A stretch of 64,000 nt of DNA from Ophelia neglecta (lineage: Eukaryota): assembly GCA_965285935.1 (NCBI GenBank), contig OZ260661.1, forward strand, positions 60,512,001-60,576,000, read 5' to 3'. The position numbers were made by a program, and so were the translations under genes. This document shows, piece after piece, positions 15,263 to 57,175 of the stretch (its first letter is position 1; every line of letters starts with the position of its first letter). The notes under the pieces were generated by a model. The model was not told where the DNA came from. It searched no databases and saw only the letters and a list, made by a program, of their open reading frames with translations.

Positions 15263-15558
15263 TTAACTGTCGTCTGCTTGTAAAGAGCCATCATTAGAAC
15301 CGTCACTGTTCACGCCACTATTACCTATAACACCAGGAGATTCCTTCATGCGTTTCTTTTGCTTCATTCGACGGTTTTGAAACCAAATTTTCACTTGAGT
15401 TTCATTCAGTCCAAGGGCCGCAGCGATTTCTATTCTCCTAGCTCTTGTGAGGTATTTGTTAAAGTGAAACTCCTTTTCTAACTCAGTCAGTTGTTTGTTT
15501 GTAAAATTTGTCCTGCCCATATTTGGCTGGCCTTGGTAACCGTACTCGCCAGACTTCC
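15263..15558 (-). CDS. Hox1: Hox1/labial, coding exon 2 (homeobox 15526-15347)
   Basis: Acceptor poly-T-CAG|GG (AG at 15560-15559), phase 1 matching exon 1. Homeodomain [60 protein letters not shown] is diagnostic of paralogy group 1. Spliced CDS 966 nt = 321 aa. Confidence 0.98.
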
Positions 15559-15887: not shown

Positions 15888-15901
15888 TGACCTCTTGACC
15901 T
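15888..15901 (-). promoter_or_regulatory. Perfect DR2 nuclear receptor element (AGGTCA AG AGGTCA) in the Hox1 intron
   Basis: Plus strand reads TGACCT CT TGACCT. Confidence 0.5.
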
Positions 15902-22430: not shown

Positions 22431-23559
22431 AATTAAACCAGTTCCTCCCTCAAGATAAAAGGGCTGTTTGAAGCTGGACACATAAAATGTGTCATCCGAG
22501 TGTGCCCTGCCCTAACCCCTGACCCTCCGGCGGCCAGGCCCCGTCTCCGGCTGGTTGCCAGCCTCTCTCGCCCGGCTGCAGGCATATTGCCGCGGTCACT
22601 TGCCAATCCCACTTTTATGTGGCTCATATAACGACTAATCAACTAGCCATCATAAAACTGATGGGCTAAATTGCAGTTATTGTATAGAGCACTGTGATTA
22701 ATTATGATGACAATAGAGCTATTTTGCACTCTACAGTATAGGCCTTTAAGGTGGGGGTGCCAATTACATATAAGAAAGCATCATTTGATCATATAAATTG
22801 AATTTTAAAAAAGCTTCATATTTTGCATTACTCACTCTTGGAATGTTTATTTTTTCGCGTGTTGTTTGTTTGACAGGTATTATTAGCCTTCCAGACCTTT
22901 CAACGCCCTTCTTCTGCTAAGCAGACGATGAAATATAACCCAAATAAAGCGTCTTATTCGCTTACAAGCAGTTACAAGCATGTAGCGGTTAGAATGAATG
23001 TTCCAAGAAGCAACTCTGCCATAAATCAGACGAGGAAAGCATTATTTCTTACGCTAATAGAGCGCAGGTTTTTACTCCGGCAGACGACTCTGGTGCAAAA
23101 CGAGCGGTAAATCATGGTCTAACTAAAGGAAGCAGGCCTTTAACACACTACGGCTTGTGACATTTTAATCTCAGCCGGCACGTGGATTTGATTATTGTCT
23201 CTTCTAAACGCCCCAATGGAGATCTTTATGACCCATCCCATATATCTCCCACCGCTCTGTTTATCCTCAAGCATGGATTTATGTCCCTCGAGTTTTGGCC
23301 AGCAAGTCAATTGTCTTCCGCACAGCGTGTTTGTCAGAATGCTAGGCAGTGGTGCTACCCCAATGTTTACATGCTTTTCACCTATTGAGCAGTTGTAAAA
23401 CACGGATCTATTAAGTTGGAAGAGATTAGAGGTATATTAGATAGTAATGATCGAATTAGCCAGGAGTTTGATTGATATTTGATTATGTCAATGGTCGAGT
23501 ATGAAAGGGGCAAGTATAGGAATTCAAATAAAAAAGAGAGTCGACATCACCTTTCTCAC

Positions 23560-24229
23560 CTGTTTTCGGCGTACTTCGTTTGACTGTCATCCATTTGTAT
23601 GTTGTTGTTGGGGGTCCCTGATCATGTGTGGGGCTGGAGGAAAGTCCTTGGGAGGAGCACAACACCCCGTAACCCGCCGCTGTGCCTGGGGAGTTACACA
23701 TGATGGGGTTACAGTCCGAGTGGTCAGGGTAGCACGAGGAGGGGTAGCCAGAATTGGGCATGCCATGGTGTGGGGGCATATCAGGGAGGGTACCGTTCAT
23801 TCCCATGTTTCCTGGGGGTCCGTAGTACGGAGGGTAGGGAGCCTGTCCGTGGTGTTGGGCTCCGTTATGACCCGTACCCCCTCCACAGGCAGCTCCTGGG
23901 TGTAGTCCGTAGGCAGTAGGTGCCTGCTGGTTAACTCCGTTGCCGTGGCTCAGCACTCCGTTTCCCGTGGTCTCGTAGCCCATGGGCGGGCCCTGCTGGT
24001 GGCCACCGGTCAGGTCCTGTAGCCCGGCGGATCCGTGGTGATGTCCCGGGTGCATGCCAGCCCCTGCCCCTGGGCCAGGCCCTCCGTACCCGTAATGCTG
24101 TCCGGTGTCAACCAGACCATTGTTTACGTTAGAGTAACTATAATTCGAGGTGGAAATAGACTCCGGATAGCTTGTGCTGTAAGTATTATTGTCCAAGTTA
24201 CATATCGTGTACTCTCCGTTCGAATTCAT
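23560..24229 (-). CDS. Hox1: Hox1/labial, coding exon 1 (N-terminal domain and hexapeptide)
   Basis: ORF MNSNGEYTICN... (resembles the HoxB1 N-terminal EYPLCN), G/P/H/Y-rich, with the labial-type hexapeptide TYKWM followed by TVKR. Donor ACAG|GTGAGA, intron starting at 23559. Exon is 670 nt (phase 1). Confidence 0.95.
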
Positions 24230-24445
24230 AATTTACACTGGCTAGCAGACTTGATCTGTCAATGGACTAGCACAAATTAGCTGTCGATGGTCAGATAAAT
24301 CTGAAATAAATGAAGCTAAATTACACGTCGCACTTGACAGGATTATGAGGGTTAAATTGGTCACGTGGCTGCGGTCAACCAATCAGAAGTCAGGCCATTG
24401 CTGTGGAGTCTACTCAATGCGCTGGTTGATGGATGGCATGACAAA
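24230..24445 (-). promoter_or_regulatory. Hox1 5'UTR/proximal promoter: E-box plus CCAAT cassette, Pbx-Hox1 site, Meis sites
   Basis: GGTCACGTGGCT 24359-24370; CCAATC 24379-24384; TGATGGATGG 24427-24436; TGACAG 24335-24340; CTGTCA 24256-24261. All lie within about 215 bp of the ATG. Confidence 0.7.
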
Positions 24446-27400
24446 ATCGGTCGAATAACTTTTTCGCTGCTCGTGTAAGCTTCTTACCCTCCTTGGCGAT
24501 GAACGTGAACACGACAGACGAAAGCTCGCTAATTTCTGCACCTTTTCTACTCGTGGACACATCAGAGAGCACTGTGTTTCGTGTGGGATTCTTTCCGTTA
24601 CCATAGCGACAGCTGCGACCCCCGGAAAGACGCAAAAATGGGGGAGACCCAACTGCAGGTAGGTTGTGTGTGATTCCAGCGCCAATCTCGTTTGGTTTTT
24701 GTGGAAAATGGCCGCCTCCCGATCAAAAATGTTGCCGTTTGCGGCAAATGGTGACTGCCGTGGAAGTCCTGCGCTGTTGGTTGCCCACATTGGCCGGCTC
24801 CGCCCTGGTCCCAGGCCAGGTGACTTTGGTGATTAGTTCAGGGGCTCCCGGCAAATCTCTCTTTATTTTGCCCCGGCCATTGATTCTGTAGCAAATTATT
24901 CGCCGATTCGCTGGCATTAAGATTTAATACGGGGGATCCACAGAGGTCGCACGGAGCATTAGCATGAGAGGCGAGCGATCGAGGGGTAGATGGTGTGTCT
25001 TCTTTGTGTGGGCCGCCTCAGTCGGTTGAGAGATGACACCGGCAGCAGGTCTCTCCCCTCACTCGGTGTAGTTTTCAAACAGATAACCGTCACACTGCCC
25101 AGGTGTAAATTGGCGTATCTCGTCTGCAGCCACCGCTTGTTTTTCTAATCACATGGTGCATGCTGAGCTCGTCCATGAATCGGCCTGTATTCCCCGATGC
25201 CTTGTTACATTTGCCTTGTTACATTGTATTTACACTCCTACAGCCCTGCGCTTTCAGGTCTTTGCAACATTGCTATTCTCCATCACCAAACACCGTTATG
25301 CAAGACTGTAAACGGATCCTCTTTTATGTTGAATAATCCTGTTGAATTTAAGCCGAAAATCCAATTTGATTTAATTGATTTCCTATGAATAGGCGGTTCA
25401 TTTAGGAACACTTCTGTCTAATTGTATAAGATTTAGGTCTTTGAATTGAAGTGTCCTTTGGTGTTCACTCCTTCTACCCCACTAACCTAACTGAAACTTG
25501 AGGACGGCAAATACACCGGTCGGTCCTTGTGATCTTCAGGCATATTATACCGAATTCTTGGCCGAGTGTGATTGCCCTGGTGTTTACAGTCAAACAAGAC
25601 CCGCTGTTTTAGGTTGACTTATGCTGACTCGGAGACGGCCCTTGTGCCCCAAATGGTTCCTAGTTAAAATCGGGTCAAGCAGGTAGTCTAGTATTAGACA
25701 GGTGGTGGTGTAGTCGTGTTCATCCTCCCCAAACTGATGACTTGCTATGCACCAGTGGGAAAACAACTTTCAGGCCAATTTTCAATACAGAAACCCATAT
25801 GCGCACCGTGTTAGGGTACGACACACGGTTGCTTTCAGCACAATACTATCAATGTCAAGCGTTCAAAGGGCACAAGTTGATGCTTTTTGATGCTCCAGTT
25901 AAAAGTTGACATGCATTCAACAACGAAATAGGGTTGTTGGAGAGATATAAACTCTTTAATATTGCCCCTAATCAGAACTTCCCATATGCCTGCCATTCAG
26001 CTGTTTAACATAAAGGTCTGATAAAGGCCACGACACTTGAAAAATTGTGCAACAAGCGCTAGGCAGTTTCGGGTAATATTTGTTAGCAAATAATTAATGT
26101 TTTCATTCTGTCACAAGCGTCTGATTGGTTATGCACGAATTGAATTCTGAATGATGGCGGAGACGTATTCCGTGGAAACTGCCATGTTGTCACCAACACA
26201 TTTCAATTAGCCTAAAGAGATTTATCCGGCTCATCCTGAATGTTTTGAAAAAGTTTGAAAATGCGTATTTTTTCGAACAAAATGATAAATAAGAAACAAG
26301 TGTGATATTAACAAGATCGTTCACAGCCTTGGGCAAAAAACAGTAGATATTTTAAAAAGCTGAACTGTGCGTAGTTCAGTAGGCCTAAAGGCCTATCAGT
26401 GCTCTAGTTTTAAATCTAAAGCGGTTTATACACTTACAGTTTGAGTGTATACAGATAGAATCCCCCAACCCTCAGGCCTTAGTTAAACAAATGTTTTTCT
26501 TATTAAGGACAGTGTGTTCAGATAGTTGAATTCTATATAACCTTACTGAGTGCTCGTGTTATGATATTTGTGACTGTCTCATGTTGTCATACGCTGGTGC
26601 ACGTGTGGCGACAATTAAATAAACATTGTCTAGAGAAATGGAAAAATAATGATCATGTTAATAATCTATAGCAATATTAAATCCTGTTGTAGTCTGTGAA
26701 ATATGATGTATGATTATTACCAAGGTCATAAATATGGTGGCGGGGACGTCAGGTTTGTCTATTTTTGTCCGTTAAGTTGCAGCAGTATTGCATAAATATA
26801 GTCAAGTTTATAGTCTACTTGCTTGGGTTTAGATTTCTTGACTTGATGAGTATTTCTATAGACAAGCGCGGCGGTGAAAATCAATTCATTTATTGAATAT
26901 TACACATATGATTCGGGCATCTCAATCACCATTAAGCCCGCCCCATTTTATAACCCCATTCAGGCTGCTGCAATATAAGCCTTGATGCCTTTGTTTGACT
27001 CAGTTTGATAGCCGTCTTGCCATCACGAGAGGAGAATGCGGCGAAACTAACATCATGGCAAGTCAATGAGAACTGACCCGGCCGATGCATGATCCAGAGT
27101 CGGAGATACCATTACGGCCCCAGGGCCAGAAATCCACCACTGACACCAAGGCCACTCCGCAGCACGAAACGCCTAGCCCGCTGCAAGCAACGCGGATCAG
27201 GGTATTAATATCGTGTATTGAAATTAATGATTCATAAGCCTACATAAGATACCGGCAATCAAATTATAAGCCATGCAGCCAGTGCTGAACATGAAGCCAT
27301 GGCGGCCTGAACTTCTCCCATCCACCCCAGGTACACGCAGCTCTCATGTATTGTCCACCTAGGCTAGCCCCAATCAAAATTAATGATACACCCGGACGAG

Positions 27401-56900: not shown

Positions 56901-57175
56901 ATTATCGCCCACAACATCCTCTTCACCCAGGACACTCCCCCTGCAATGTGCCCCCTACCCCCGGGGTGGGGGAGGAAGATGGAAGATTAATTGCTGGAAT
57001 GTTCTGATTCACCTATGTACAGCCAAAACCCTGCTTAATGTCTCACACTCATTTACTTAAGGGTTTGATTTATATTCTTTGTATATAATATTATAATTTA
57101 TATTAATCGAAATGTTTAATAAGGCTCAGATCGGTTCAATTCGGGTCACTTTATATTATACGACAGTGGGTTGTT

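Follow-up and report, generated by a model that had tools for sequence, protein, structure and literature searches.

A conserved, very probable Hox1 proximal promoter with a CCAAT/E-box core and a putative Pbx-Hox site in the lophotrochozoan Ophelia neglecta

The DNA directly upstream of Hox1 in Ophelia neglecta carries a block of about 135 bases that is retained in distant Hox1 orthologues and is, very probably, a functional Hox1 promoter. Beyond it lies an invariant 8-base word of Pbx-Hox type, TGATGGAT, which is probably read by some Pbx-Hox pair. Our preferred reading, to which we assign a probability of roughly 0.55, is that of an ancient Hox1 core promoter with one Pbx-Hox site, through which Hox1 would likely regulate its own expression. 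The preliminary description of this DNA had proposed an autoregulatory element of the vertebrate Hoxb1 type in front of Hox1, made up of a Pbx-Hox decamer, an adjoining TGACA and two Meis/Prep hexamers, and overlooked the main feature, namely the block at 24253-24388 with its CCAAT box and E-box.

The stretch of DNA analysed (the window, 64,000 bases) corresponds to positions 60512001-60576000 of the contig, and the adjoining 600 kb were added to give a cluster region of 60512001-61176000. ORF translations identified Hox1, Hox2 and Hox3 in the window, all encoded by the minus strand, and across the cluster region ten Hox genes span 560 kb in this single orientation, in the order Hox1, Hox2, Hox3, Hox4, Hox5, Lox5, Antp, Lox4, Lox2 and Post2. 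The genes were named from homeodomain signatures and gene order. This gene set marks a lophotrochozoan cluster, and no Post1 homeobox was seen within ~95 kb past Post2. As to phylum markers, a search run without a positive control gave no molluscan haemocyanin domain, and the ESM Atlas returned nothing above 0.9. The one named homologue of the protein encoded by Hox1 exon 1 is Chaetopterus CH-Hox1 (36% identity), and the genome also contains a Pbx gene and two Meis/Pknox-type loci.

Several further features were observed around these genes. The Hox1 intron contains, ~330 bases before exon 2, a perfect AGGTCA direct repeat with a 2-base spacer (15888-15901, minus strand; DR2, the retinoic-acid-response type), and the window has just one other RGKTCA direct repeat, a DR4 at 57133 (plus strand). 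Comparison of this intron with the DNA downstream of two distant orthologues (L061 and L064, see below) revealed no conserved elements above chance-level words. Splice-acceptor-like pyrimidine tracts ending in AG occur upstream of the start codons of Hox3 (near 60576238-60576380) and Antp (near 60796950), and since the CCAAT/E-box of Hox3 lies downstream of its tract, this suggests an upstream non-coding exon and an internal promoter in that gene. The Hox4 start codon, at contig position 60663955, has a poor context (T at -3), as is also reported for vertebrate Hoxa4 and Hoxc4 (PMC8892498).

The decamer TGATGGATGG is indeed present at 24427-24436 (plus strand) and, because the minus-strand exon 1 of Hox1 starts at 24229, it lies 198-207 bases upstream of the Hox1 ATG, or 198-214 bases when taken together with the TGACA that starts two bases past it. 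The two TGACAG hexamers are likewise present, 106-111 bases (24335-24340, plus strand) and 27-32 bases (24256-24261, minus strand) upstream of the ATG. Judged within this single genome, the evidence for the motif set is modest. The decamer is single-copy in the window, where at least one copy appeared in 19 of 100 window shuffles, and occurs 2204 times in the whole genome (0.0009 per 300 bases), and TGACAG is found 50 times in the window. Among the 2213 tiles of 300 bases in the cluster region, four contain the decamer and TGACAR within 100 bases of each other, 48 contain two TGACAG and 87 contain a looser pairing (TGATDDATKD plus TGACAR). The word TGATNNAT occurs once in the 2 kb upstream of Hox1; the core TGATGGAT is absent from the viral contigs, and the bacterial promoter scan was empty. 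The strong evidence is conservation.

A conserved Hox1 N-terminus pattern led to four metagenome loci, one of which (L062) extends just 46 bases upstream and was left out of the promoter counts, leaving L061, L063 and L064. Their exon-1 proteins are 39-40% identical to the window Hox1 (BLASTP), and they fall into one clade (support 100/100), so that the three count as roughly a single independent comparison at this depth. The core TGATGGAT lies at -203 to -206 from the ATG in all four sequences (Ophelia and the three orthologues), within flanks that are barely conserved (2/19 and 7/42 columns invariant), and is the only 8-mer common to all four 2-kb upstream regions beyond -160. Of 5000 shuffle trials, 100 yielded a shared 8-mer, and when it also had to lie no more than 10 bases from the right place the count was 40 of 20000 (~0.002). 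The preliminary description had named presence in orthologous promoters as a test, and there its parts separate: the core and the TGACAG at 24335 are invariant (8/8 and 6/6 columns), whereas the full decamer was rejected as a conserved unit, as its last two bases vary, and the adjacent TGACA, with 0/5 columns invariant, was rejected as an essential Meis site, as it is lost in all three distant orthologues. The TGACAG at 24335 keeps a distance of 84-86 bases from the Pbx-Hox core in 4/4 sequences; it sits inside a longer invariant run, which means that it is not singled out and may owe its conservation to something else. The second hexamer stands less firmly, since the word at 24256 is TGACAG in Ophelia and L063 and TGATAG in the other two (L061 and L064), and it is possibly a second, weaker and degenerate Pbx-Hox type site.

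Table 1 Features of the Hox1 locus, in window positions.
Feature	Position	Strand	Evidence or remark
Hox1 coding exon 1	23560..24229	-	Starts MNSNGEYTICNLD; hexapeptide YKWM; ORF; splice donor read from sequence
Hox1 coding exon 2	15263..15558	-	Paralogue-group-1 homeodomain; acceptor read from sequence
Ultraconserved block of ~135 bases, predicted proximal promoter / 5' leader of Hox1	24253..24388	-	BLASTN, L061/L063/L064
TGAYAGAT (second Meis hexamer of the preliminary description)	24254..24261	-	7/8 columns invariant
Initiator-like TCATTT	24308..24313	-	Predicted transcription start near 24311
43-base invariant run	24317..24359	-	Words TAATCC, CTGTCA, CAAGTG, TAATT
Meis/Prep hexamer TGACAG (predicted site)	24335..24340	+	6/6 invariant; inside the 43-base invariant run
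E-box CACGTG, predicted USF/bHLH site	24362..24367		CCAAT box 11 bases away
CCAAT box, predicted NF-Y site (reads ATTGG in the sense of the gene)	24379..24383	+	In 4/4 orthologues
Bipartite core TGATGGAT of Pbx-Hox type, with labial/Hox1-type spacer (central GG)	24427..24434	+	8/8 invariant, four sequences
Final GG of the decamer	24435..24436	+	AG, CG, AG in the distant orthologues
TGACA adjoining the decamer	24439..24443	+	Kept in closer relative X9; gone in 3/3 distant orthologues
A-rich conserved island AAAAAGTWATT	24454..24464	-	10/11 columns invariant

The block itself matches the three orthologues at 90% identity over 133-137 bases (BLASTN, E ~1e-47), and nothing else in their 2 kb of upstream DNA resembles the window significantly. 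It has a single match in the genome, on which ground a repeat or transposon origin was rejected. In the sense of the gene it opens with ATTGG-N11-CACGTG, and 56 bases past the E-box in 4/4 sequences comes the initiator-like TCATTT, the only TCAKTY match within 260 bases of the ATG in all four. No TATA or DPE was found properly placed at the start predicted from it (~24311). Such a start would put the Pbx-Hox core in the proximal promoter, the hexamer at 24335 just before the start and the word at 24256 in the leader. Among open-access titles and abstracts we found no account of the block, of the site or of a CCAAT/E-box module in Hox promoters of lophotrochozoans. The block resembles the bilaterian-wide conserved regulatory segments described by Frith and Ni in 2023 (PMC10735318) in being a developmental-gene promoter with near-perfectly conserved CCAAT and E-boxes, and differs in that the homeobox genes named in the available part of that paper, which covers 25 bilaterian-wide segments, include no Hox gene, a point on which its supplement may bear.

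Closer relatives were represented by contigs of four sequencing runs (X4, X5, X6 and X9), which were compared with positions 23400-25400 of the window. X4 differs at 15 of 415 letters over 24068-24482 and X5 at 18 of 399 over 24084-24482 (95-96% identity), as against 54/314 (X4) and 53/307 (X5) in the 3' part of exon 1 (~83% identity), the middle of the exon being unalignable. Over 24341-24482, X9 (contig depth 3.8) has one change in 142 bases, and as this falls at 24393 the decamer, TGACA, CCAAT box and E-box are all unchanged in X9; the X6 contig ends at 24415. Because the entire block is conserved at this range, the closer relatives pick out no single motif. Two further upstream blocks, 24576-24745 and 24840-25005, are conserved in the closer relatives and not in the distant orthologues.

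The CCAAT/E-box module recurs along the cluster, where it precedes the start codons of Hox1, Hox2, Hox3, Hox4, Hox5 and Lox5 by 98-215 bases. In the form CCAAT-N9-12-CACGTG it accompanies 6/10 Hox genes, compared with 10/2213 tiles of the cluster region; it was first noticed at Hox1 and Hox2, and half of the remaining genes (4/8) carry it. At a comparable distance Antp, Lox4 and Lox2 carry ATTGG without CACGTG (exact match), and at Post2 the module lies 784 bases upstream. The spacing is also constrained: where CCAAT and CACGTG occur no more than 30 bases apart in the cluster region, 12/23 pairs have a spacing of 10-12 bases, compared with 0/14 in the opposite orientation, and 10-12 bases is the spacing reported for NF-Y/USF in human cells (PMC4889920). 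A tighter version of the pattern gave 247 matches genome-wide and 29 for a reversed control, with many of the matches being repeat copies, and these numbers imply a general promoter module that is not Hox-specific.

Other occurrences of the module were recorded as well. A recurring GATTGGTCAACCCCGCTCACGTG family, probably a dispersed repeat carrying the module, lies behind many of the genome-wide matches. Within the cluster region, modules without an adjoining Hox start codon lie at contig positions 60709262, 60957753 and 61038826 (minus strand) and 60527105, 60782899 and 61060817 (plus strand), and are candidate promoters of microRNA, non-coding or antisense transcripts; the one at 60527105 (window ~15105) is just beyond the Hox1 stop. 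The Lox4 leader (60882347-60882459) has a CCAAT box followed by TGACATCA instead of an E-box, and a copy of TGATGGAT 17 bases before the ATG.

In its combination of CCAAT and CACGTG 10-12 bases apart near the start codon, recurring over many Hox paralogues, the module resembles the NF-Y/USF module of vertebrate Hoxa genes (PMC9456764; PMC4889920). There, Hoxa9 has a conserved CAAT box and E-box ~60 bases before the start, and mutation of the E-box reduces the promoter activity of Hoxa3, 5, 7, 9 and 11 (PMC9456764). The Ophelia module differs in belonging to a lophotrochozoan cluster, with NF-Y/USF binding predicted, and in being present at Hox1 and Hox2, whereas the tested mouse Hoxa1 and Hoxa2 leaders are described, in the available part of the source, as being without such activity or E-box (PMC9456764).

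Copies of the decamer are also found elsewhere in the cluster. TGATGGATGG occurs 12 times in 664 kb, where 1.9 copies are expected from the genome rate (6-fold, Poisson P 9e-7), and the 11 copies other than that at Hox1 have unique flanks, ten of them lying between Lox5 and Lox2 (60769680-61005081) and one 10.7 kb upstream of Hox3. The words TGATTTATGG and TGATTAATGG exceed their Markov expectation in the cluster (11 vs 3.6-4.3 and 9 vs ~3, respectively), and TGATTGATGG is not enriched there (2 vs 2.3 expected). At the promoters themselves, the TGATGGATGG site is present at Hox1 and at none of the other nine Hox genes. Since the decamer is found at 11 other places in the cluster, the word alone is no mark of Hox1 autoregulation; its enrichment supports a function of the word but weakens a meaning restricted to Hox1.

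Under the preferred reading, NF-Y would bind the CCAAT box and a USF-type bHLH protein the E-box 11 bases away, and the two would set a TATA-less start near 24311. Pbx-Hox1 would occupy TGATGGAT, 43 bases upstream of the CCAAT box, with Meis/Prep on the TGACAG at 24335 as a third partner, and the resulting positive feedback may keep Hox1 on in cells already making Hox1 protein, thereby maintaining an anterior expression domain that other inputs started. On this reading the element would work like the Hoxb1 element, with one site instead of three. The site lies 5' of a group-1 Hox gene with a hexapeptide, in a genome that encodes Pbx and Meis/Prep, and has a conserved Meis/Prep hexamer within 100 bases. 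The conserved unit is exactly the core with its central GG, which is reported to decide between Lab/Hox1 and Dfd/Hox4 specificity (PMC8846413), and the core-TGACAG distance of 84-86 bases falls inside the 100-base rule of vertebrate enhancers, in which Pbx-Hox and Meis motifs this close together predict hindbrain activity (PMC4489388).

The same core may instead be a real Pbx-Hox site that is read by another Hox protein, in activating or repressing cross-regulation. This would agree with the 6-fold enrichment of the decamer over the cluster, mostly in its Lox5-Lox2 half, with the excess of TGATTTATGG and TGATTAATGG and with the use of Pbx/Meis motif pairs by different Hox proteins in vertebrate enhancers (PMC4489388), whereas the central GG is the spacer of the Lab/Hox1 type (PMC8846413) and the site is absent from the other nine Hox promoters, so that we consider cross-regulation somewhat unlikely. 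A constitutive core promoter of NF-Y, bHLH and TALE factors only, in which the 8-mer serves an unrelated factor, serves Pbx without Hox, or has been kept by chance, would account for the generic nature of the module (247 genomic matches against 29 in the control) and for the second island at 24454-24464, which is equally well conserved, and TALE factors are reported to join NF-Y at promoters without Hox (10.64898/2026.02.16.706105). That cooperation, however, requires the CCAAT box to have a DECA motif at a distance of 10-12 bases (10.64898/2026.02.16.706105), whereas TGATGGAT is not a DECA and lies 41-43 bases away; a DECA-CCAAT element (Pbx/Prep with NF-Y) was accordingly rejected on spacing, with the nearest TALE-type words ~40 bases from the CCAAT box. 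The low frequency of chance retention in place (~0.002) and the fit of the TGATGGAT word to a prior from other phyla also speak against a merely constitutive promoter, which we judge quite improbable.

The block could also have been kept as an RNA element of the 5' leader, with the two inverted TGACAG words as the arms of a stem. The Ophelia sequence folds at z -2.4 with both words paired, and seven pairs can form in 4/4 sequences, one of them through a G-C to G-U change in two. The orthologues, however, fold at z -1.05, +0.53 and -0.59 into differing structures, the four sequences show no compensatory change, and the 5' arm would lie upstream of the predicted start. The block has no Rfam match, and a scan of 14 of the 60 cluster loci found no RNA family. 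A conserved RNA fold was therefore rejected, and an RNA element, which would also leave the TGATGGAT island unexplained, appears very improbable.

The Hox1 autoregulation that we favour has a vertebrate counterpart in the rhombomere-4 autoregulatory element of Hoxb1 (b1-ARE), reportedly described by Popperl in 1995. The autoregulatory elements of Drosophila labial and C. elegans ceh-13 are distal enhancers, whereas the putative Ophelia site lies ~200 bases from the ATG. It shares with the b1-ARE a position 5' of a Hox1 gene, a bipartite site with central GG and a TGACAG within 100 bases (PMC8846413; PMC3227721), and differs in offering one clear site where mouse Hoxb1 autoregulation uses three cooperating Pbx-Hox repeats (PMC3227721), in being merged with the predicted core promoter and in the conservation of the 8-base core alone. 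With labial and ceh-13 it has in common a Hox1-group gene and the same type of site, the feedback there being Exd/Pbx-dependent (PMC8846413; PMC12767569).

Pbx-dependent Hox1 autoregulation is reported in mouse and fly (PMC8846413) and for the Hox1-group gene ceh-13 of C. elegans (PMC12767569), Hox1 autoregulation with Pbx is reported in Ciona (PMC3227721), and a shared bilaterian language of Pbx/Hox/Meis motifs is already in print (PMC3261376). In amphioxus, Hox1-3 fragments gave no Hox/Pbx response according to the available part of Natale 2011, which concludes that Hox/Pbx response elements arose after the amphioxus split (PMC3227721). It is thus unsettled whether Hox1 autoregulation, reported in mouse, Ciona, fly and nematode and not found in amphioxus, is ancestral to bilaterians or arose repeatedly, and for the third great bilaterian branch we found no data in the open-access literature. 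The conserved lophotrochozoan core would favour an older origin, yet an 8-base word can arise repeatedly. A wider scenario, which we regard as unlikely as a whole, would join these observations: lophotrochozoans may keep the ancestral bilaterian Hox1 promoter near letter for letter, with a CCAAT/E-box core that came from a proto-Hox promoter and was inherited by most paralogues, and with a Pbx-Hox1/Meis feedback site; later multiplication of this site would have produced the Hoxb1 enhancer of vertebrates, flies and nematodes would have shifted it elsewhere, and amphioxus would have lost it, and copies across Lox5-Lox2 would place the remaining cluster genes under the control of Hox1-type complexes.

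A conserved site that keeps its place in the Hox1 promoters of lophotrochozoans makes the question of ancestry testable with one 250-base fragment. The block, together with a module common to six Hox paralogues, suggests that the core promoters of Hox genes, beside their proteins and their order in the cluster, are deeply conserved.
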